From Candidatus Saccharimonadota bacterium (GTDB lineage: Bacteria; Patescibacteriota; Microgenomatia; UBA1406; GWC2-37-13), in the NCBI GenBank assembly GCA_001790095.1, contig MGBH01000001.1, forward strand, positions 300,001 to 332,000: a stretch of 32,000 bases of DNA, read 5' to 3'. The stretch's first letter is position 1, and each line of letters begins with the position of its first letter. Made by a program: the position numbers and the translations under genes. The notes beneath the pieces were generated by a model that saw only the letters and a program-made list of their open reading frames with translations, searched no databases and was not told where the DNA came from. Positions 9,760-31,436 of the stretch are shown one piece after another.

Positions 9760-10761
9760 CTATTTCCGGAACGACAGATAGAGCTCTCTTATAGTATGAG
9801 CTGCATTATACAGATGATAAAGAAAAGGGGAAATGACAAGGTCAAAGCTCCCCACCATCTCCACAAACTTTGTACCATATCCTTCTTTAAAACGGGTAAA
9901 ACCAGCCCATGAATGTTTTTCAGAATAGACGGGCGGCATTGAACCCCACATATCAAACTTTTTCGCGCCAAGTTTTTTACCCAGCAATATGGTGCGCCAC
10001 ATTAAGAGATTTGCAGCCATGAAGTTGCGGTAAAGAGGAGATGTTCCACCATAAGGATAATAAAATACACCGTTAAAATAAAAAAGCTCATACGCGGCAA
10101 GTGGTATATCTTTAAAATACGCAATCAAAATATGGGCAATATCATTACTTAAGCTATCCCATACTATCTTATGATAATGATAATTATGACCAAAATATTT
10201 TTGACGCTTACAGGTGGCAAAGTATAGTTTTTGGAAAACTTCAAAGCCTTCTTTATTTGACATTTCTTTGATCGCAATCCCTTTTTTCTGAGCGAGGCGG
10301 ATGTTATACCTTGTCTTTGGCTTCATTTGCTTTAAAAGATCATCTTCGGTCTTGGTTAAATCTAGCTCTTGAGTCCAAGAAGGAAAAAGTGGGTGAGGGG
10401 ACGGATATACTTTACTTTCTTTATCTATCCGATGTTGTGGATCGTTTTTCAAAACATAGGGTTCAAGCTTAACAAATATAAGACCTTCTTTTTTCCCAAA
10501 ATCCAGTAAAAAATGGACAACATCCTTAGAAAGGTTCGCTGATCTTGGAATATATCCAATTCTTAATCCAAAAGGAAGCAAATGGATAGTCATTTGAAAT
10601 GAATGACAAAGTTCTGTTCCGTCAAACTCACCAAATCTCAACACGCGGACTCCTGTTTTTTTTCGAGCTTCTCCCCACGCCCATGATTGAAGCGGATGAA
10701 CTGCCCTACTGTCAAAAAGATTTTTATTGAAATTATCCTCGATGATTTTCACTTTGTGCAT
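9760..10761 (-). CDS. FemAB-family peptidoglycan interpeptide-bridge aminoacyltransferase
   Basis: 333 aa with the FemAB-like N-terminus HPLQSWAWGEARKKTGVRVLRF and overall Fem/MurM-like length. It is the last gene of the minus-strand envelope operon. Confidence 0.75.
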   Translation of the reverse strand: MHKVKIIEDNFNKNLFDSRAVHPLQSWAWGEARKKTGVRVLRFGEFDGTELCHSFQMTIHLLPFGLRIGYIPRSANLSKDVVHFLLDFGKKEGLIFVKLEPYVLKNDPQHRIDKESKVYPSPHPLFPSWTQELDLTKTEDDLLKQMKPKTRYNIRLAQKKGIAIKEMSNKEGFEVFQKLYFATCKRQKYFGHNYHYHKIVWDSLSNDIAHILIAYFKDIPLAAYELFYFNGVFYYPYGGTSPLYRNFMAANLLMWRTILLGKKLGAKKFDMWGSMPPVYSEKHSWAGFTRFKEGYGTKFVEMVGSFDLVISPFLYHLYNAAHTIRELYLSFRK

Positions 10762-20783: not shown

Positions 20784-20855
20784 GGCTGGGTAGCTCAGAG
20801 GTAGAGCACACGTTTCATAAGCGTTAGGTCGTGGGTCCGAATCCCGCCCCAGCCA
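20784..20855 (+). tRNA. tRNA with CAT anticodon (elongator Met or lysidine-dependent Ile2; not initiator)
   Basis: Manual cloverleaf: acceptor GGCTGGG/CCCAGCC, D arm GCTC-AGAGGTA-GAGC, anticodon loop TTCATAA, variable AGGTC, T arm GTGGG-TCCGAAT-CCCGC, discriminator A. No CCA is encoded. G1-C72 is paired and the anticodon stem lacks the 3 G-C pairs, which argues against an initiator. Confidence 0.85.
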
Positions 20856-20859
20856 CTAT

Positions 20860-22034: not shown

Positions 22035-22586
22035 ATGAAAGATCTGACGATAGATGACGTTATGGTAAAGGTAAAAAATGATATTTTTGTCCAAGATTAC
22101 TCAAAAAAGCAAGTTATTGAAGGAGTGAAGGTCCTCGAGGTTAAACGTATGGTGGGGGAGGACGGAACGTTTGAAGATTTATTGCACGTAAAGGAAGATG
22201 GGTTTTTTGAACTGTTTCCCGAGATTAAAATCCGACAGATAAATAGATCAAAGCTGCTCCCCGGCTCCATAAAAGCATGGCATCTACATTTCAAACAAGA
22301 AGATATATGGTATATTCCACCCGAAGATCACATGATCTTGGGATTATGGGATACGCGCGAAGCATCAATCACCAAAGACATTACTATGAAAATCGTGATG
22401 GGAAATGGATCATCAAGGGTTGTGCTCGTACCACGTGGGGTAGCACATGGGGTGGTCAACCTTGCTAAAACCCCTGGTAATATATTTTATTTTGTCAATA
22501 ATCAATACAACCCCACCGATCCTGACGAGCGGCGTCTTCCTTGGGATAAACTGGGCGCTAGTTTCTGGGAAATAGAAAAAGGATAA
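22035..22586 (+). CDS. RmlC-like cupin (dTDP-4-dehydrorhamnose 3,5-epimerase family)
   Basis: 183 aa. IEGVKVLEVKRMVGEDGTFEDLL, IKAWHLHFKQEDIWYIP and LVPRGVAHGVVNL match the RmlC-fold pattern. Confidence 0.7.
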   Translation: MKDLTIDDVMVKVKNDIFVQDYSKKQVIEGVKVLEVKRMVGEDGTFEDLLHVKEDGFFELFPEIKIRQINRSKLLPGSIKAWHLHFKQEDIWYIPPEDHMILGLWDTREASITKDITMKIVMGNGSSRVVLVPRGVAHGVVNLAKTPGNIFYFVNNQYNPTDPDERRLPWDKLGASFWEIEKG

Positions 22587-23251
22587 GTAATCTGGTTGTA
22601 GATTGCACAGGGCTTTTTGTAATAAAAAGCCCACTCACGATCTCCATAAGAAAAATGCCACCACTCTCCGTCAAATGGGGCAAAACCTGCACCCATCATA
22701 ACTTTGCGCAATATCATTCGATCTCCTTTTTGCTTATTTGTTATTTCACCTGAAAAAACGTAGTATTTCAGTGTTGAGTAATCATAAATAGGCGATCCAA
22801 AATCAATCTGTTTTCCAGTTCTATTATCAATGATATACAGATCAACAGCTCCACCTGTTGGATGACCTGCAACTGATGGAACTGCAACAGATCTGTGCAC
22901 AGATTCATACAAATCTACTGGGTTTGCATAATATTTTTGGTTAACTATTGCAAGGCGTTTAAGAAATCTTAAGATTTGTATCTTGAGTGATCGATAACCG
23001 TATACTACATACAAAGAATAATTCTGATTAATTTTTAACAGTGTTCGCTGCGCTTTTAGTAGACGGTTATAAACGTCTTTTCTTACCAAAATATCGTTTC
23101 CTGTAACTCGTTTCATATCCTGCATTTCAGGCAGATAGCCATTTGGAATATTGACGATCTTTATAAGCGGCTCGTTACACTCTTTGGACGGGACGTTTAT
23201 TAACTGTGTATATTTCACCATTGTGTCCTCGAGCCGCTTTATTTTTCTCAT
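22502..23251 (-). CDS. VanX/DdpX-like D-Ala-D-Ala dipeptidase (peptidase M15D)
   Basis: VVYGYRS corresponds to the DdpX YDAYRP region. The zinc-site motif is SVAGHPTGGAVDLYI (H-x6-D) and EWWHFSYGD is present. The C-terminal ~28 aa are antisense to the RmlC-like gene and may be a non-conserved tail. Confidence 0.8.
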   Translation of the reverse strand: MRKIKRLEDTMVKYTQLINVPSKECNEPLIKIVNIPNGYLPEMQDMKRVTGNDILVRKDVYNRLLKAQRTLLKINQNYSLYVVYGYRSLKIQILRFLKRLAIVNQKYYANPVDLYESVHRSVAVPSVAGHPTGGAVDLYIIDNRTGKQIDFGSPIYDYSTLKYYVFSGEITNKQKGDRMILRKVMMGAGFAPFDGEWWHFSYGDREWAFYYKKPCAIYNQITYPFSISQKLAPSLSQGRRRSSGSVGLY

Positions 23252-23255
23252 AGTT

Positions 23256-24695
23256 TTACACTATTTTTTTAAAGAATATCCGCCTATCTCTTTCAAACTC
23301 TCCACTCGTTCTTTTTTGTCTTACTTCCTGTTGCATTTCGCGGTCTTGATCAGTAACCTGAATAAACCCAAGTTTTTTGTAAAGTCTTTGTGAGGCCGTA
23401 TTACTTTCTGAAGTACGCATAAGTACAGTTGTTCCTTTGGCAAAAGACTTTATGCGTTCTTTTACTAATACTTCAGCTATTGATTTTCTTCTCCATTCAC
23501 TAAGAACTCCAAGATCGGCCATATACTGTGTTGATTCAATGGGTATACCAAACTGTTTTGCAATTTCTGCAATCTCCTTTTTTTTCGAAAGAGGGACTGC
23601 AGCTCCAAATCCGATAAGGCCATTTTTATTTCTGGCAAAAAACAGTGTGCCGTCCTTTTGGTATTCGTTAAAATCCGTCGCCACTTCTTCGTAGGAAAAT
23701 ACTTCATCGTATGGAGGTCCTCCGAAGATAATATTGTATGCACTCAGGAGTTCTCCATTTTCCAGATATTGACCTAACTGTTGAGAGGTATATATTCTTT
23801 CAATAACGATAGGGCCATCATCAGTTTCAATTAATGTCCCCATATTTAATATTTCTACTAGTCCCTGTATTTGTGCATAATTGAACCGGGTTCCATCAAA
23901 GTTTATAGATACCTTAATAGTTTGCCCAGAAGGTTGAATAATAGGTTCCTCAATAATTGAATTTCCTGAATTTTTTGCAAGTACCATGCCGACGGCAGTT
24001 GTTCCGCTTCCACAAGCTGTTTCTAAAAATAGAGTATTACTATTTTTTACATAAACAACTGGAGTAATCTCTATTCCCTTTCGAGTTCGTTTAGCAAACA
24101 TTACGCCTGCAGCCGGTTCGGTATCAAGCCCATTTTTACGGATTATATCCATCCCAATTTTTTTTATTTCCTCTTCATCTTTGCCTTTAATTTGAGTTGT
24201 ATTCCAATCAACATACTGGGTTATGCCTTCCATATATACGAAGTTGTTTTCCGGATTTGAAGAGTCTATCTGTACTCTGTCAGGGTCAGAATAGATTGGC
24301 ATTTGAGCATATGATTCACCATCAGTGGTTACTCCTGCTATTAATGCGTCTTCTACTCCACCTGCTTTTATGCGTATTTGTCCTGGCATACCTTTGAGAG
24401 CAAGGTATGCGGCGCTTCTTGTGGCATTTCCGCAAAACTCACCTCCAGCCATCATAAGTTCCGTGCTGTTAGGCTTAAAGTCAACAAATCCCACCTGTTC
24501 TATTTGATTTGGAGATCCAGATGGATATAAAGACATTATTTCATCATTAATTTTTATTCGTTCAAACGGATCTTTTACGATACCCATTATTAATGACGTA
24601 TCATTACCGCCTGGGCGCATATTAATGAAGCGGTATTGGTTATTTGAACTCGCTAATTCTTTTGGTTTTAATTGTGGTTCCATAATTTTTTTCAT
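23256..24695 (-). CDS. Fusion protein: DapF/CntK-like PLP-independent two-cysteine amino-acid racemase/epimerase (N) + GNAT N-acetyltransferase (C)
   Basis: N-terminal ~300 aa: RPGGNDTSLIMG, EQVGFVDF, AGGEFCGNATRSAAYLA (first catalytic Cys context) and ETACGSGTTAVGMVLA (second Cys context). C-terminal ~170 aa: ADLGVLSEWRRKSIAEVLV (motif A-like) and ASQRLYKKLGFIQV (the classic GNAT ...lYek.GF ending). Confidence 0.6.
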   Translation of the reverse strand: MKKIMEPQLKPKELASSNNQYRFINMRPGGNDTSLIMGIVKDPFERIKINDEIMSLYPSGSPNQIEQVGFVDFKPNSTELMMAGGEFCGNATRSAAYLALKGMPGQIRIKAGGVEDALIAGVTTDGESYAQMPIYSDPDRVQIDSSNPENNFVYMEGITQYVDWNTTQIKGKDEEEIKKIGMDIIRKNGLDTEPAAGVMFAKRTRKGIEITPVVYVKNSNTLFLETACGSGTTAVGMVLAKNSGNSIIEEPIIQPSGQTIKVSINFDGTRFNYAQIQGLVEILNMGTLIETDDGPIVIERIYTSQQLGQYLENGELLSAYNIIFGGPPYDEVFSYEEVATDFNEYQKDGTLFFARNKNGLIGFGAAVPLSKKKEIAEIAKQFGIPIESTQYMADLGVLSEWRRKSIAEVLVKERIKSFAKGTTVLMRTSESNTASQRLYKKLGFIQVTDQDREMQQEVRQKRTSGEFERDRRIFFKKIV

Positions 24696-24728
24696 AGAAT
24701 TACTAAATACTAAAATCAGGCAGGATAT

Positions 24729-24754
24729 AAAAAACCCCGCCTTTAAGCGGGGTT
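24729..24754 (-). terminator. Intrinsic terminator hairpin in the 5' leader of the racemase-GNAT operon
   Basis: Minus-strand RNA reads AACCCCGC-UUAAAG-GCGGGG-UUUUUU. It has a 6-bp all-GC stem (extendable by A-U pairs), a 6-nt loop and a U6 tract. It ends 33 nt upstream of ATG 24695. Confidence 0.6.
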
Positions 24755-24775
24755 AATGAAGTGAGACCAAACAAA

Positions 24776-24841
24776 TTACCCCGCAACAAGCGGGTGATGA
24801 TGGAGAATATCAGTTATAAAATTATAAAGTTTAAAGTCCAT
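24776..24841 (-). CDS. Candidate 21-aa leader peptide MDFKLYNFITDILHHHPLVAG
   Basis: Hand-translated: ATG GAC TTT AAA CTT TAT AAT TTT ATA ACT GAT ATT CTC CAT CAT CAC CCG CTT GTT GCG GGG TAA. The ATG lies 14 nt after the predicted -10. The three His codons abut the first GC-rich hairpin arm, and the stop codon directly follows the second arm. Confidence 0.35.
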   Translation of the reverse strand: MDFKLYNFITDILHHHPLVAG

Positions 24842-24850
24842 AAAGTTATA

Positions 24851-24870
24851 TTAGTATATTACCATACTAA
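24851..24870. promoter_or_regulatory. Inverted repeat TTAGTAT-N6-ATACTAA (candidate operator)
   Basis: It has perfect 7-bp arms and overlaps the -10 and spacer of the minus-strand promoter. Further (A)TACTAA copies occur at 24701-24706 and 24707-24713. It is adjacent to the TrpR-like yerC-family gene. Confidence 0.35.
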
Positions 24871-24884
24871 TACATCATTGTCAA
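24856..24884 (-). promoter_or_regulatory. Candidate sigma70-type promoter of the leader and racemase-GNAT operon
   Basis: On the minus strand: TTGACA (24884-24879), a 17-nt spacer ending TGG (extended -10), then TAATAT (24861-24856). Confidence 0.5.
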
Positions 24885-24906
24885 GAGAGACTTATCATGT
24901 TACAAT
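24878..24906 (+). promoter_or_regulatory. Candidate sigma70-type promoter of the yerC-like gene
   Basis: TTGTCA (24878-24883), a 17-nt spacer ending TGT (extended -10), then TACAAT (24901-24906). The ATG at 24913 is 6 nt after the -10, so the mRNA would be leaderless. The -35 overlaps the minus-strand -35 by 5 of 6 bp. Confidence 0.5.
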
Positions 24907-24912
24907 GTTTGT

Positions 24913-25230
24913 ATGAAAAAGATGAAAGACAATTTTTCAAAACCTACTCCCTATAAACCCGCAAATGCTAAAGAAAAAAGATTAATGAAGATCCTTGCTT
25001 TACTTAACAACGAGCAGGATGTAGCAAACTTGTTTCGAGACCTGCTAACACATTCTGAAATTGAAGAATTTGCCAATAGAATAGAGATACTTAGATTGCT
25101 CAAAAAAGGATTTTCCTATCAAAAAATCGCGCATGAAATTGGTTCCTCAACAACTACTGTTACACGGGTTGCTCATTGGCTATACCATGGGTCAGGTGGA
25201 TATCAAAAAATCATTGACTTTCTTGACTGA
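24913..25230 (+). CDS. TrpR-related YerC/YecD-family DNA-binding protein
   Basis: 105 aa. ILALLNNEQDVANLFRDLLTHSEIEEFANRIEILRLLKKGFSYQKIAHEIGSSTTTVTRVAHWLYHGSGGY aligns by eye along the whole length of B. subtilis YerC (..FFEDICTINEL..SQRFEVAKML...TYLDISEKTGASTATISRVNRSLNYGNDGY). Confidence 0.85.
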   Translation: MKKMKDNFSKPTPYKPANAKEKRLMKILALLNNEQDVANLFRDLLTHSEIEEFANRIEILRLLKKGFSYQKIAHEIGSSTTTVTRVAHWLYHGSGGYQKIIDFLD

Positions 25231-28586: not shown

Positions 28587-29798
28587 TTATTTTAAGAACG
28601 TTTCATATACGTGTTCAACGTCTTTATCTCCTCGTCCTGATAGATTAATGATAATTACATCATCTTTCTTCATTTTTTTTGCAAGTAGTACCCCATAATG
28701 TACCGCGTGAGCTGATTCAAGAGCGGGGATAATACCTTCTGTTTTTGAAAGCTCAACAAATGCGTTTACTGCCTGTTTATCTGTTGCGTTAACACACGTC
28801 AATCTCTTAGTGGTTTTCAGAAAAGATAATTCTGGTCCAACTCCAGGATAGTCTAGTCCTGATGCGGCACTGTAAGATTCAGCTATGTTTCCATCTTTAT
28901 CCTGTAAGGTCAAGGTTTTGAATCCATGGATTAAGGTCACTTTGCCCTTTCCTAGCGATAAACCATGACGATTGGAGTCTTCTCCTTTTCCTGCGGGTTC
29001 AACAGCAATTAAGACAACTTCTTTATCAGGTAAAAATGCGAAAAAAGCCCCCATTGCATTGCTACCTCCGCCAACACAGGCAACAACAGCCTTTGGAAGT
29101 TTACCCTCTTTTTTTAATATCTGAATCCTCGCTTCCTTCCCTATTATTTTCTGAAAGTCACGTACCATAACGGGATAGGGGTGTGGTCCGACAGCTGATC
29201 CCAAAAGATAATATGAATCAGGCTCTTTGACGTATGCGGTAAGAGCTGCGTCTACTGCGTCTTTTAGTGTACTTTGACCTTGGGTAACAGTAATTACGTT
29301 TGCCCCCAGGATTTTCATACGGTATACGTTTGGTTTTTGTGCGTCTATATCACGTGCACCCATATAGATATCGCACCTCATTCCAAAGTATGCAGCAATC
29401 GTTGCGGTTGCCACTCCGTGTTGTCCTGCTCCTGTTTCGGCAATGAGTTTCTTTTTACCCATATGATAGGCGATCAATCCTTGGCCTATACAATTGTTTA
29501 TTTTATGTGCCCCCGTGTGGTTTAAGTCTTCTCGCTTGAGGTATATCTTTGCTCCCCCTATTTTATTGGTCAGGTTTTGGGCAAAGTAAAGATTGCTTGG
29601 TCGACCTGCATATTCTTTATACATAGCATGAAGCTCATTTTGAAAAGACCTGTTTTTTCGCAATTGGTAATATTTTTGTGTGAGAATTTTTAACGCGCTT
29701 TCAAGCTCAGGTGGAACAAAACGCCCGCCAAATTCTCCAAAATAACCGTTTTTATCAGGTAAAGAATGTGTTTGCATAGTTAATTGTTTAGTTGTCAT
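28587..29798 (-). CDS. trpB: Tryptophan synthase beta chain (TrpB1-type)
   Basis: Motifs seen are GYFGEFGGRFVPPEL, the PLP-lysine motif HTGAHKINN, and GGGSNAMG. The track start at 29852 is a TTG inside a palindrome. ATG 29798 or ATG 29777 gives a normal ~400-aa TrpB. Confidence 0.9.
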   Translation of the reverse strand: MTTKQLTMQTHSLPDKNGYFGEFGGRFVPPELESALKILTQKYYQLRKNRSFQNELHAMYKEYAGRPSNLYFAQNLTNKIGGAKIYLKREDLNHTGAHKINNCIGQGLIAYHMGKKKLIAETGAGQHGVATATIAAYFGMRCDIYMGARDIDAQKPNVYRMKILGANVITVTQGQSTLKDAVDAALTAYVKEPDSYYLLGSAVGPHPYPVMVRDFQKIIGKEARIQILKKEGKLPKAVVACVGGGSNAMGAFFAFLPDKEVVLIAVEPAGKGEDSNRHGLSLGKGKVTLIHGFKTLTLQDKDGNIAESYSAASGLDYPGVGPELSFLKTTKRLTCVNATDKQAVNAFVELSKTEGIIPALESAHAVHYGVLLAKKMKKDDVIIINLSGRGDKDVEHVYETFLK

Positions 29799-29823
29799 TC
29801 CCGTAAAGACGGGAACCCAGACT

Positions 29824-29870
29824 AGAATATTAATAACAATTATTTGTTTCAATTTAATATTAAATTGAAA
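29824..29870 (-). promoter_or_regulatory. 24-bp perfect palindrome overlapping a candidate trpB promoter
   Basis: The palindrome TTTCAATTTAAT|ATTAAATTGAAA spans 29847-29870. On the minus strand its TTGAAA (29852-29847) is followed by a 17-nt spacer and TATTCT (29829-29824). Confidence 0.3.
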
Positions 29871-29915
29871 CTGAGGGTTTAGATGCGCCAGCAGTATTTG
29901 GAGTAGAGGAAGGGT

Positions 29916-31436
29916 TTATTTTTCATAGGAAAAGGAAGAATATTTATTTGTAATCCCAATTTTTTCCCTTACCTCCATCATTTTCTTTGATGCCTGTAAT
30001 CGGGCTTTTGCAGCACCTGATTGTAATATCATTTTTATTCTTTCGGGATTTGTTTTCAATTGGCTATATAATTCTCGTTCTTTTTTAAACTTTGTAAGTA
30101 TTGCTTGAAAAAGTTTTTCTTTTACTTCTACATCTGCCACCGTTCCTTTTTCATATCTATTTTCAAGATCTTTAACTTCTTTTTTGTCATCGTTAAGCAA
30201 GCGATGATAAGTGAATATTGGGTTACCGTCAACTCGTCCAGGATCTGTCGCTTTAATACGATTTGGGTCAGTAAAGCAACTCATGACTTGTTTACGAATT
30301 ATTTTTTCCTCAGCAAAAACAGCGATGTAATTATTCAAACTTTTACTCATCTTGCGCTTGCCATCAGTACCAATCAAACGAGCACTTTCCTTCATATTAA
30401 AGATGTCAGGAAGGTTAAATGTTTTCCCATATGTTTTGTTGAAAAATCCTCCAACATCTCTTGTGATTTCAATATGTTGTTTCTGATCGTCTCCAACAGG
30501 CACATAGTCAGGGTCATACAAAAGAATGTCTGCGGCCATAAGGATGGGGTAACTGAAAAGTCCCATATTTATATCTTCCGGATTGGTTCCTTTTTGGAGT
30601 TTGTCTTTATACGCGTGTGCACGCTTGATAAGAGAAAGTGGAGTAATATTGTTTAAAATACTTTGTAGTTCAGTGTGCTGGGGTATGTCAGATTGTCGAT
30701 AAAAAACTACTTTGTTTGTATCAATCCCAAATGCTAAATAAGACAACACAAGATTTTCAACGTTTCGTTGCATTTCATCTCTTTTTTGTATGGTTGTGAG
30801 AGCATGAAGATCAGCGATAAAAAAATACACCTTATCAGCTTGCTTTTGCAATTCCAAGAATGGAACTACGGCTCCTAGATAGTTACCTATGTGTACTTCC
30901 CCGCTTCCTGATGGAGTAATGCCAGTTAAAATTGAGTAATGAGATTTAAGTATAGAATCAGAAGCTGATTTGATGAATCCAACATCCACTATGGTCGAAT
31001 TTGGCAGATTGATGAGATCTGATGTTTTATAGTTAATACTTGAAGTAAAGCTTCCTGAACCTGCCTGAACATATTTTTTTTCAAATATTTTTTTATCAAG
31101 AAATGTTTTTACGACTTGAGGTATATAAATACGCGCACTTCCAGGCTCAAGTCCTGTAAGAGAAGAAAACTCTTTATTGGTTGCCATAGTTAATAAAGTG
31201 GTTTTGGCAGCTTTTTTAAGTTTCTCCAAGTTTACTTTGCAATCATCTCTTCTAATAACAGCGATATATCCATAATCAACTTTAAAGATCAACGTTGAAG
31301 CTCCATTTTCAAAGGTAAGCTTGCAGTAATTGAGAACATCCTCAACTTCTTTAAAATATGGGTGTTCAACCACATAGTGATCGACATTCAGTTCCTTGAG
31401 CTTGTTTGAGTATTCTTTTACGTTTAGTTCTATCAT
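29916..31436 (-). CDS. trpS: Tryptophanyl-tRNA synthetase with N-terminal YbaK/ProX-like (aminoacyl-tRNA deacylase-type) domain
   Basis: The C-terminal ~335 aa is class I TrpRS: ITPSGSGEVHIGNYLGAV (HIGH-type), GDDQKQHIEITRDV and KMSKS. The N-terminal ~165 aa (..ASTLIFKV..VNLEKLKKAAKTTLLTMATNKEFSSLTGLEPGSARIYIP..YVQAGSGSFTSSINYKTSDL) resembles YbaK/EbsC-type editing domains. Confidence 0.8.
   Translation of the reverse strand: MIELNVKEYSNKLKELNVDHYVVEHPYFKEVEDVLNYCKLTFENGASTLIFKVDYGYIAVIRRDDCKVNLEKLKKAAKTTLLTMATNKEFSSLTGLEPGSARIYIPQVVKTFLDKKIFEKKYVQAGSGSFTSSINYKTSDLINLPNSTIVDVGFIKSASDSILKSHYSILTGITPSGSGEVHIGNYLGAVVPFLELQKQADKVYFFIADLHALTTIQKRDEMQRNVENLVLSYLAFGIDTNKVVFYRQSDIPQHTELQSILNNITPLSLIKRAHAYKDKLQKGTNPEDINMGLFSYPILMAADILLYDPDYVPVGDDQKQHIEITRDVGGFFNKTYGKTFNLPDIFNMKESARLIGTDGKRKMSKSLNNYIAVFAEEKIIRKQVMSCFTDPNRIKATDPGRVDGNPIFTYHRLLNDDKKEVKDLENRYEKGTVADVEVKEKLFQAILTKFKKERELYSQLKTNPERIKMILQSGAAKARLQASKKMMEVREKIGITNKYSSFSYEK

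Follow-up and report, generated by a model that had tools for sequence, protein, structure and literature searches.

A predicted histidine-responsive operon that pairs a putative histidine racemase-acetyltransferase fusion with a VanX-like peptidase

A 32,000-nucleotide (nt) stretch of contig MGBH01000001.1 (assembly GCA_001790095.1, Candidatus Saccharimonadota bacterium; positions 300,001 to 332,000 of the forward strand, hereafter called the window) carries two genes in tandem on the minus strand that are separated by only 4 nt (23252..23255) and that both reside downstream of a short leader (Table 1). Gene A is predicted to encode a histidine racemase domain fused to an acetyltransferase domain of the GNAT family, and gene B encodes an M15D-type zinc peptidase related to VanX. 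According to an exact-sequence look-up, the two proteins have been deposited as 'hypothetical protein' or 'N-acetyltransferase domain-containing protein'. A preliminary description of this DNA had drawn attention to these genes, to the 4-base pair (bp) gap between them, to the M15D motifs of gene B and to the leader, and we found all of these where they had been placed. It had overlooked a divergently oriented gene for a HisR-type repressor, as well as the probable identity of the DapF-fold domain of gene A as a histidine racemase. Taken together, the features of the locus provide good support for the conclusion that the operon belongs to a histidine regulon, and that it would be switched on by histidine limitation through both a repressor and an attenuator. 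The regulatory architecture is supported by sequence and by comparison among loci, and it is from this architecture that we infer regulatory function.

Table 1. Positions of the genes, domains and predicted regulatory elements of the operon in the 32,000-nt window
Feature	Position	Strand	Details and basis
Gene B, VanX-like M15D zinc peptidase, 249 amino acids	22502..23251	-	Pfam, NCBIfam and structure
Gene A, predicted histidine racemase-GNAT fusion, 479 amino acids	23256..24695	-	Open reading frame and profile matches; alternative start at 24683 gives 475 amino acids
GNAT acetyltransferase domain (residues 291-479 of gene A)	23259..23825	-	Module-dedicated subfamily
Racemase domain (residues 21-287 of gene A)	23835..24635	-	DapF fold, CntK_N/HisR type; catalytic C88 and C228
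Predicted intrinsic terminator	24727..24754	-	9-bp stem with 6 GC pairs followed by TTTTTT; 31 nt before gene A start
Run of six U residues	24734..24729	-	Follows attenuator segment 4
Attenuator segment 4	24740..24735	-	GCGGGG
Attenuator segment 3	24752..24747	-	CCCCGC
Attenuator segment 2	24784..24779	-	GCGGGG; abuts UAA stop of the leader
Attenuator segment 1	24794..24790	-	CCCGC; starts in the last His codon
Leader His codons	24802..24794	-	CAT CAT CAC
Leader open reading frame	24776..24841	-	MDFKLYNFITDILHHHPLVAG; 21 codons plus stop
Candidate repressor operator	24851..24870		20-bp palindrome TTAGTAT-GGTAAT-ATACTAA over the -10 box; binding predicted
Operon promoter-like site	24856..24884	-	-35 TTGACA (24884..24879), 17-nt spacer, TG-extended -10 TAATAT (24861..24856)
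YerC/HisR-type (TrpR-family) histidine repressor gene	24913..25230	+	PF01371, 69.5 bits; TIGR02531, 56 bits (cut-off 42.2)

The amino-terminal ~290 amino acids of gene A match only two racemase or epimerase models in NCBIfam, namely HisR (74.2 bits; 1.3e-20) and CntK (69.7 bits; 2.6e-19), and the corresponding proteins of Fusobacterium nucleatum (HisR, PDB 9CR1) and Staphylococcus aureus (CntK, 6JIW) are also its best PDB matches. Homologs of gene A carry a precomputed match to the Pfam family CntK_N (PF26317). Because the equivalog cut-offs of these two models are much higher (400 and 300 bits, respectively), we regard the domain as a distinct branch that is a member of the family but not an equivalog of either protein. 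(The name HisR has been used both for this racemase and for the transcriptional repressor discussed below, and so we refer to the 'HisR racemase' and the 'HisR-type repressor'.) The gene A domain has the DapF fold, the two catalytic cysteines and the proposed histidine-binding residues in common with both precedents. Its cysteine contexts, GGEFCGN and ETxCGSGT, are present, and C88 and C228 are invariant in 21 homologs and align with C67 and C209 of the F. nucleatum enzyme (residue list in PMC11602996). The residues proposed to bind histidine in that enzyme are N18, E49, E65, G68, N69, E206, A210 and S211 (PMC11602996). In our alignment, gene A residues N31, E66, E86, G89, N90, E225 and S230 correspond to N18, E49, E65, G68, N69, E206 and S211, the sole change among the proposed binding residues is from A210 to G229, and the aligned positions are invariant or nearly invariant in the 21 homologs. 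The assignment of this first domain as a likely histidine racemase is well supported by these similarities.

Unlike the HisR racemase and CntK, the gene A racemase is fused to a GNAT domain and lies in a neighborhood of M15, hisS and HisR-type repressor genes. CntK genes belong to the staphylopine cluster, and the HisR racemase gene is found among folate genes without a known role (PMC11602996). Indeed, the physiological role of the HisR racemase was left open in its 2024 characterization, and the published network of these enzymes left out proteins longer than 308 amino acids (PMC11602996).

Gene B matches the Pfam family Peptidase_M15 (PF01427) with 61.8 bits (cut-off 27) and contains the motifs H130-x6-D137 (AGHPTGGAVD) and E196-W-W-H-F200. 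Residues R87, H130, D137, E196 and H199 are invariant in 88 gene B homologs and align with VanX residues R71, H116, D123, E181 and H184, which we take to be the transition-state arginine (R71), the zinc ligands (H116, D123 and H184) and the catalytic residue (E181). An AlphaFold2 (AF2) model of gene B (predicted local distance difference test score, pLDDT, of 93) has VanX (1R44) as its top Foldseek match (E 6e-11, 24% identity, TM-score 0.52-0.64). Gene B shares with VanX, DdpX and PcgL (MEROPS M15D, PF01427) its Pfam family, the zinc ligands (His/Asp/His), the catalytic Glu and a counterpart of Arg71. Its scores against the equivalog models are only 44.3 bits for VanX (cut-off 320) and 44.6 bits for DdpX (cut-off 176), or about one-seventh and one-quarter of the respective cut-offs. 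Judged from these comparisons, gene B is a divergent M15D enzyme that appears to be catalytically intact. Unlike VanX and DdpX, which are associated with van genes or a ddp transporter and are induced by vancomycin or stationary phase, gene B is linked to a histidine racemase, hisS and hisG, and it is predicted to be induced by histidine limitation.

An alternative start codon would shorten gene B to 239 amino acids. Its 3' end overlaps a convergent gene for an RmlC-like cupin (22035..22586) by 85 bp (22502..22586). The overlapping tail, comprising the last ~25 amino acids, is absent from homologs (which mostly cover ~84-92% of gene B) and is modeled with a pLDDT of only 59-77.

Upstream of gene A, the leader open reading frame (ORF) and the four segments that follow its histidine codons could form three alternative pairings, with energies of -10.1 (1:2), -11.9 (2:3) and -15.0 kcal/mol (3:4). 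These values are close to those given for the Escherichia coli trp attenuator. The complementarity of segment 2 to segment 3 was matched in only 3 of 500 shuffles of the window leader. Moreover, the sequence (CAY)3 occurs just twice on the two strands of the window (64 kb), and among its 885 small ORFs only one encodes HHH, which is the leader ORF itself. The His-codon attenuator put forward in the preliminary description is borne out in that its geometry and energetics fit those of a classical ribosome-mediated attenuator, and histidine-dependent read-through is the predicted outcome.

To compare the operon with its relatives, we used 86 distinct loci (designated by L numbers), which derive from the 80 best-scoring loci among 581 relatives found in a one-genome-per-species scan and from nine more that came from contig look-ups and a metagenome scan, with duplicates removed and the window added. 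The metagenome scan, made with a single protein query, yielded one locus, a duplicate of L001. Neighboring genes were called by simple ORF finding and BLAST clustering. Segment 2-segment 3 complementarity beats shuffles (in each case, no more than 10 of 500 matched it) in the window and in L001, L082, L083, L088 and L009, and the four-segment layout is common to these five relatives. Segments 2, 3 and 4 change in concert in L083 and L001, and L083 carries a CG insertion in all three; a MAFFT alignment of the five leaders is out of register in the stems, and these statements rely on complementarity relative to shuffles for each sequence, not on a formal covariation statistic. In the Patescibacteria-type leaders, the complement of the terminator 5' arm is located where the leader ORF ends, and at least 98% of shuffles have a shorter one. 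The same shuffle script mis-called or missed terminators in several leaders from Firmicutes, whose layouts comprise three hairpins.

The association of histidine-rich leaders with these racemases extends well beyond the closest relatives. Small ORFs encoding HHH occur upstream of the racemase in the sense orientation at 6 of 49 loci and in the antisense orientation at none of the 49, and histidine ranks first among the 20 residues in this comparison. In at least 14 loci, which belong to several phyla and include L008, L014, L016, L017, L018, L023, L029, L031, L032, L051, L058 and L089, a leader with a run of His codons, followed by a terminator, precedes the racemase operon or a racemase-containing operon. 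A regular expression for T-box elements had no match upstream of any racemase.

The arrangement resembles the his operon attenuator of E. coli and Salmonella (hisL, RF00514), with which it has in common an ORF with tandem His codons, the 1:2/2:3/3:4 pairing scheme and a terminator with a U run. Unlike hisL, the window leader has three His codons, precedes a racemase-GNAT/M15 operon rather than biosynthetic genes, lacks a match to the Rfam family RF00514 (His_leader) even at E<=10, and is combined with a HisR-type repressor gene in the same intergenic region. Attenuators with His leaders of 3-5 His codons have been predicted in the B. cereus group, Peptostreptococcaceae and Erysipelotrichales (PMC9413887). 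In the literature that we searched, neither a leader-peptide attenuator nor HisR-type repression has been described in Patescibacteria/Candidate Phyla Radiation bacteria.

The second predicted input is the divergent repressor. Its best PDB matches are 3KOR, 3G1C and 3FRW (1e-11 to 2e-8), compared to ~3e-3 for E. coli TrpR, and so its matches to HisR-type structures surpass that to TrpR by five to eight orders of magnitude. The 3G1C protein has been named HisR, and YerC (HisR) is a TrpR-family repressor of Firmicutes that uses histidine as corepressor and recognizes a 20-bp palindrome with the consensus cacTTTA-N6-TAAAgtg (PMC9413887). Likeness to this regulon is evident in that the divergent gene scores above the cut-off of the YerC/YecD model and that relatives bear perfect copies of the published box. 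Specifically, perfect boxes (ACTTTA-N6-TAAAGT) number 9 compared to 0.3 expected, each located at a promoter of the module or of a HisR-like gene (L002, L043, L048, L053, L062, L071, L073 and L087). We counted only perfect matches because, with two mismatches allowed, the motif is no commoner than in shuffles. A second palindrome, ATTAAC-N2-GTTAAT, occurs 4 times upstream of racemases (0.2 expected). In the window, the candidate operator is a different palindrome, whose core (TAGTAT-N6-ATACTA) has 0.0 matches expected in shuffles, and which is found again in L001/L086 and, with one mismatch, in L082. The published HisR regulon consists of the his operon, hisXYZ*, yuiF and hisR; the study does not cover Patescibacteria, and the words 'racemase', 'dipeptidase' and 'acetyltransferase' are absent from it (PMC9413887).

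The claim that both genes lie behind a single promoter and leader stands insofar as one promoter-like site, a consensus-level match only, precedes them, and its TTGACA and extended -10 are kept upstream of the orthologous operons in L001, L082, L083 and L088. A promoter-like site for the repressor gene (24878..24906) is positioned back-to-back with it. The -10-like TACAAT of the latter site ends 6 nt before the ATG (24878..24913, plus strand), and thus the HisR-like protein is probably translated from a leaderless mRNA. The leader-peptide ORF likewise begins ~6 nt past the -10 box in L001 and L082. We also observed three ACTTTA half-sites within 22 nt (24825..24846, minus strand), downstream of the operon -10 and across the leader start codon. 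This hexamer has 21 copies on both strands of the whole window, and the three-copy cluster is not kept in L001 or L082.

If the operon is part of a histidine regulon, then its relatives might be expected to keep company with other genes for histidine metabolism, and they do. The module is found in Microgenomates, Saccharibacteria, Peribacteria, Clostridia, Micavibrio, Bdellovibrionales and one Micrarchaeota archaeon. Within the 86 loci, the racemase gene is accompanied by genes for an M15 peptidase (39), GNAT (25), HisRS, the histidyl-tRNA synthetase encoded by hisS (25), a HisR-like repressor (20), a polar amino-acid ABC transporter (7), an EamA-type transporter (5), an M20 deacylase (5), an S12 beta-lactamase/D-aminopeptidase-like protein (5), HisG (4), histidine ammonia-lyase (4) and an aspartoacylase-like protein (3). 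Histidine ABC transporters and hisZ/hisG/hisIE also neighbor the racemase. Representative arrangements include HisR-like, racemase-GNAT, M15 and hisS (L002, L003 and L013); racemase, hisS and M15 (L023); hisZ, hisG, racemase-GNAT, hisIE, hisS and M15 (L017); and ABC transporter, racemase and HisR-like (L062 and L079). The preliminary description had proposed examining whether the racemase-GNAT and M15D pairing is conserved, and it is: in addition to the 39 loci with M15, look-ups that began from M15 homologs encountered a racemase gene immediately upstream in 3 of 3 cases. Its focus on histidine is likewise strengthened by the HisR-type repressor, hisS, the hisG fusions, the histidine transporters and the His leaders of other phyla.

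Several gene fusions and replacements provide further clues. M15 and HisG are encoded by a single ORF in two unrelated Clostridia, a Lachnospiraceae and an Oscillospiraceae metagenome-assembled genome (MAG) (L019:5810-7597 and L045:4806-6572). HisG is ATP phosphoribosyltransferase, the first enzyme of histidine biosynthesis. In L050 (2605-4437), the racemase and an ArgE/DapE-like M20 deacylase form a single fused protein, and an M20 deacylase replaces or joins M15 in four other loci (L041:5664-6782, L059:4759-5805, L067:4742-5770 and L009:4633-5847). In L008, L014, L020 and L043, the M15 position is occupied by an S12 D-aminopeptidase-like protein and an M29-like peptidase. Conversely, the racemase position in L089 (3288-5918) is occupied by a protein with the Asp/Glu-racemase fold (PF01177), followed by M15, hisS and EamA, and preceded by the leader MRNVNTLNHYHVRLNGGCDFRV and a terminator. 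Because this racemase has an unrelated fold, the function at that position appears to be filled by two folds, which is an example of non-orthologous displacement.

These associations bear on the most mundane explanation for the locus, which is that an ordinary D-Ala-D-Ala dipeptidase gene adjoins an unrelated racemase-acetyltransferase gene by chance, and that the HHH leader is a chance ORF before a plain terminator. The best family names for gene B are indeed those of D-Ala-D-Ala dipeptidases, the leader lacks an Rfam family match, and promoter-like sites are not enriched in the region (12 such sites compared to 10.3 in shuffles). Opposing this explanation, the pairing is kept across phyla, with HisG and M20 fusions and with replacement of the racemase fold, HHH is found only once among the small ORFs of the window, orthologous positions in other loci again bear His leaders and HisR boxes, and the VanX and DdpX equivalog scores are far under their cut-offs. 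We consider chance adjacency to be scarcely credible.

Three other observations concern the neighborhoods. In a Micrarchaeota MAG (DPANN; L038:4007-8081), genes for the racemase, GNAT and M15 (56% identical to the window M15) are followed by one for histidine ammonia-lyase, which means either that the module was transferred between domains of life or that the contig is mis-binned. Histidine ammonia-lyase also resides beside the module in L005, L041 and L049, and AstE/AspA-family aspartoacylase-like proteins do so in L005, L040 and L049. The ammonia-lyase and deacylase neighbors tie the module to histidine catabolism and possibly to N-acyl-histidine turnover.

How might such an operon work? In the model that we favor, transcription would start at the sigma-70-like promoter, and the divergent HisR-type repressor, with L-histidine as corepressor, would probably shut it off via the palindrome over the -10 box. 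Transcripts that do start would then meet the leader-peptide attenuator. When His-tRNA(His) is ample, the ribosome would reach the UAA codon and cover segment 2, the 3:4 terminator would form, and transcription would stop. When His-tRNA(His) is scarce, the ribosome would stall on CAU-CAU-CAC and cover segment 1, permitting segments 2 and 3 to pair in place of the terminator, and genes A and B would be transcribed. The M15D hydrolase (or M20, S12 or M29 proteins in other lineages) would release D-histidine from a small D-histidine dipeptide or conjugate, the HisR-type racemase domain would turn the free D-histidine into L-histidine, and HisRS, which is encoded in the same operon in many relatives, would draw the L-histidine off. 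In the least certain step, the fused GNAT domain might transfer an acetyl group from acetyl-CoA to the amino group of a co-product or of a D-amino acid in surplus; the role in detoxification that the preliminary description had suggested for this domain is still a guess.

The D-to-L direction of this scheme is suggested by the sign of the predicted regulation and by the linkage to uptake systems and to HisRS. Release of D-histidine by M15 is suggested by the chemistry of the family, by its exchange with four other families of hydrolases that act on small substrates, and by the coupling of racemase and hydrolase. The enzyme families themselves are evident from the profile matches, and the substrates that we propose for them, including that of M15, are presumptive. 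On balance, we lean toward a route, induced by histidine limitation, that frees D-histidine from small conjugates and inverts it to L-histidine for use by HisRS, with a confidence that is somewhat above even.

A number of observations weigh against this proposal. First, the attenuator is imperfect by several measures. The leader ORF lacks a visible Shine-Dalgarno sequence and has only three His codons (two in some relatives), and no Rfam family matches the leader at its gathering threshold, the best leader match being Trp_leader with 23.6 bits (threshold 41). At its energy minimum, the full leader adopts a nested fold, with 1:4 pairing around 2:3 (-30.3 kcal/mol; 24729..24794, minus strand), and not 1:2 plus 3:4, which means that the switch must be kinetic, as in classical attenuators. 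Second, the window palindrome differs from the published HisR box, which has no match in the window with up to two mismatches. Third, hisS is absent from the 32-kb window, and no transporter gene adjoins the operon there. Fourth, the proposed chemistry raises difficulties. We know of no report of D-histidine dipeptides as common natural compounds, a racemase in a histidine-starved cell would also be expected to turn scarce L-histidine into D-histidine, and it is hard to see what N-acetylation would contribute to salvage. Finally, peptidoglycan contains no histidine, and nothing that we found links the module to the peptidoglycan-derived dipeptides that the preliminary description had suggested as substrates, and so that part of its salvage hypothesis is not retained.

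With regard to the leader, we note that those of L001 and L082 also fold into nested 1:4 plus 2:3 structures at the energy minimum. The weak Rfam matches to anti-hemB and Trp_leader were set aside, as they reflect merely the presence of two hairpins and a U run.

The distribution of the module also invites a quality-control hypothesis, according to which D-histidine, whether imported or formed in side reactions, competes with scarce L-histidine at HisRS and is cleared by racemization, by N-acetylation and by hydrolysis of D-histidine dipeptides mis-made by D-Ala-D-Ala ligase, with stalling at His codons serving as the inducing signal. In yeast, Hpa3 is said to detoxify D-amino acids by N-acetylation, in keeping with this hypothesis. 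It draws on the same regulatory and neighborhood evidence as the salvage route, and two of the observations fit the protection of HisRS better than pure scavenging: the linkage to hisS (25 of 86 loci) and the presence of modules inside the his biosynthetic operons of prototrophs (L015, L017, L019 and L045). However, we know of no evidence that HisRS in these organisms is inhibited by D-histidine or charges it, and the linkage to histidine uptake systems suggests acquisition. Because both schemes run in the D-to-L direction, they are inseparable by sequence; we judge the quality-control hypothesis to be quite unlikely. The location of the module within his biosynthetic operons in Clostridia has a consequence for the preliminary description, which had treated complete histidine biosynthesis in the genome as an argument against salvage. 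Since the module is not confined to histidine auxotrophs, that argument is not valid.

The GNAT domain, which is central to the next alternative, scores 36.3 bits against PF00583 (cut-off 20.7). Its AF2 model (pLDDT 97) has only generic neighbors in Foldseek (PaiA, RimI, Ard1/Naa and BAR), and these N-alpha-acetyltransferase-like folds provide no clue to its substrate, our proposal for which is again presumptive. The acetyl-CoA loop has the consensus RRxGIG in the family and reads RRKSIA in the window (a G-to-S change), and Y439, a candidate catalytic Tyr, is invariant in 21 homologs. The subfamily is recognizable by the motifs F..PPYxE.F, RT(S/T)..N and D.R(I/V)(F/Y)L, and its members are located C-terminal to the racemase, N-terminal to it (Saccharibacteria and Micavibrio) or in a separate adjacent gene. 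More than 100 full-length racemase-GNAT fusions exist, mostly in Microgenomates.

A dedicated acetyltransferase suggests the possibility of an acyl shuttle. In this scheme, GNAT N-acylates D-histidine, the racemase epimerizes N-acyl-histidine, and M15 or M20 releases L-histidine, yielding an irreversible route that is driven by acyl-CoA and induced by histidine limitation. There is a suggestive precedent. Sakai and colleagues reportedly described in 2006 an irreversible D-to-L conversion in Geobacillus kaustophilus that employs a GNAT N-succinyltransferase, an N-succinylamino acid racemase and an M20 desuccinylase. The triad of GNAT, racemase and metallo-amidohydrolase has the composition of this pathway, fusions of GNAT and racemase in both orders suggest consecutive steps, and M20 ArgE/DapE-like and aspartoacylase-like deacylases replace or accompany M15. 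Furthermore, of the 25 loci with GNAT, all 24 that can be assessed also encode a hydrolase (L053 ends at a contig edge). The likeness to the Geobacillus pathway is limited to gene composition and to the presumed purpose of converting a D-amino acid to a usable L form. Its racemase is an enolase-superfamily enzyme that acts on N-acyl substrates, whereas the window racemase belongs to the DapF/CntK type and appears suited to free histidine, and the Geobacillus pathway is also unlike the module in its lack of an M15D hydrolase, of specificity for histidine and of regulation by histidine. Residues N18 and E206, which hold the free alpha-amino group in the HisR racemase, are kept as N31 and E225, and that enzyme tolerates no backbone modification (PMC11602996). 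In addition, 16 of the 39 M15 loci are without GNAT, and many racemases are found alone with a transporter. VanX, the sole solved relative of gene B, is D,D-specific and requires a free N-terminal amine, and the equivalent of its Asp142 is kept in gene B. We regard the acyl shuttle as unlikely.

A very different role is suggested by the nearest folds of gene B, which are VanX, VanXY and VanY. The combination of a racemase with a D,D-dipeptidase follows the gene logic of VanC-type resistance, and by analogy the racemase might make D-histidine for the cell envelope, while M15 removes competing D-Ala-D-Ala and GNAT modifies the product. The preliminary description had offered cell-wall remodeling as its alternative on the strength of a FemAB-family gene, which is indeed present in the window (9760..10761), as are many glycosyltransferase genes. 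The FemAB gene is located 12 kb from the module and was not seen adjoining it in other loci examined, and thus this alternative is unsupported. The conserved neighbors among the 86 loci include no ligase, Mur or Fem gene, and the module is also found in an archaeon of the DPANN group (L038). The VanC cluster, comprising the VanT serine racemase, the VanXYc D,D-peptidase and the VanC ligase, likewise couples an amino-acid racemase with an M15 D,D-peptidase. Unlike that cluster, the module is without a ligase and involves another racemase family and another amino acid, and its regulation has the opposite sign to that expected for wall building, since both regulators are predicted to induce at histidine scarcity, which is the wrong sign for a process that consumes histidine. 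Envelope remodeling is therefore a very improbable function for this operon.

Returning to the salvage of D-histidine, a bolder version that borrows from several of these ideas can be formulated. Symbionts with reduced genomes, predators and gut anaerobes could have an unrecognized source of histidine in D-histidine, whether free, in small D-peptides or as N-acyl derivatives, and would capture it by the joint action of the racemase, a module-specific GNAT and M15D or M20 in an acetyl-CoA-assisted and effectively one-way inversion that feeds HisRS. Such a system would be an analog of the Geobacillus N-succinyl pathway assembled from unrelated folds, would operate within the histidine regulon of Patescibacteria, Firmicutes, Proteobacteria and DPANN, and would provide a physiological role for the HisR racemase. 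We find this version attractive but doubtful as a whole.

The preliminary description knew of no described system that matches this one, and our literature search agrees: it turned up no description of the module and no link between D-histidine and VanX-type enzymes, and the closest precedents are only partial. The parts come from known families and the attenuator is of a known kind; the combination is, as far as we have searched the literature, a new one. It offers a physiological context for HisR-type histidine racemases, whose role was left open (PMC11602996), and extends by three enzyme families the histidine regulon that comparative genomics had delineated (PMC9413887). It would also bring attenuation and HisR-type repression to bacteria of the Candidate Phyla Radiation, which are thought to live on scavenged amino acids, and it suggests that D-histidine compounds matter in microbial nutrient exchange. 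Moreover, the annotation of M15D proteins as 'D-Ala-D-Ala dipeptidase' in hundreds of genomes may name the wrong substrate. The M15-HisG, racemase-M20 and GNAT-racemase fusions (the last in both orders) are strong handles for experiments.

Some of the genes that accompany the racemase belong to families that may merit attention in their own right. Four conserved families of racemase neighbors have no sequence match in Pfam, NCBIfam or the PDB. They are c7 (L008, L010, L014, L020, L024 and L043), c18 (L036, L064 and L074), c35 (L028 and L052) and a 434-amino-acid Saccharibacteria protein (L058:2113-3417 and L073:2154-3458), which is encoded by the first gene after the His leader in L058.

Elsewhere in the window, a stand-alone trpB (TIGR00263, 567 bits; cut-off 392) is situated directly downstream of trpS (28587..31436, minus strand). 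The N-terminus of trpS (residues 25-143) is a YbaK/ProX-type tRNA_edit domain, and the window contains no trp genes beyond these two. The trpB-trpS pair seems to be another case in which a salvage enzyme for the last step accompanies the tRNA synthetase for the same amino acid, in parallel with the histidine module. The sole RNA gene detected in the window is that for tRNA-Met (CAT anticodon; 20784..20856, plus strand).

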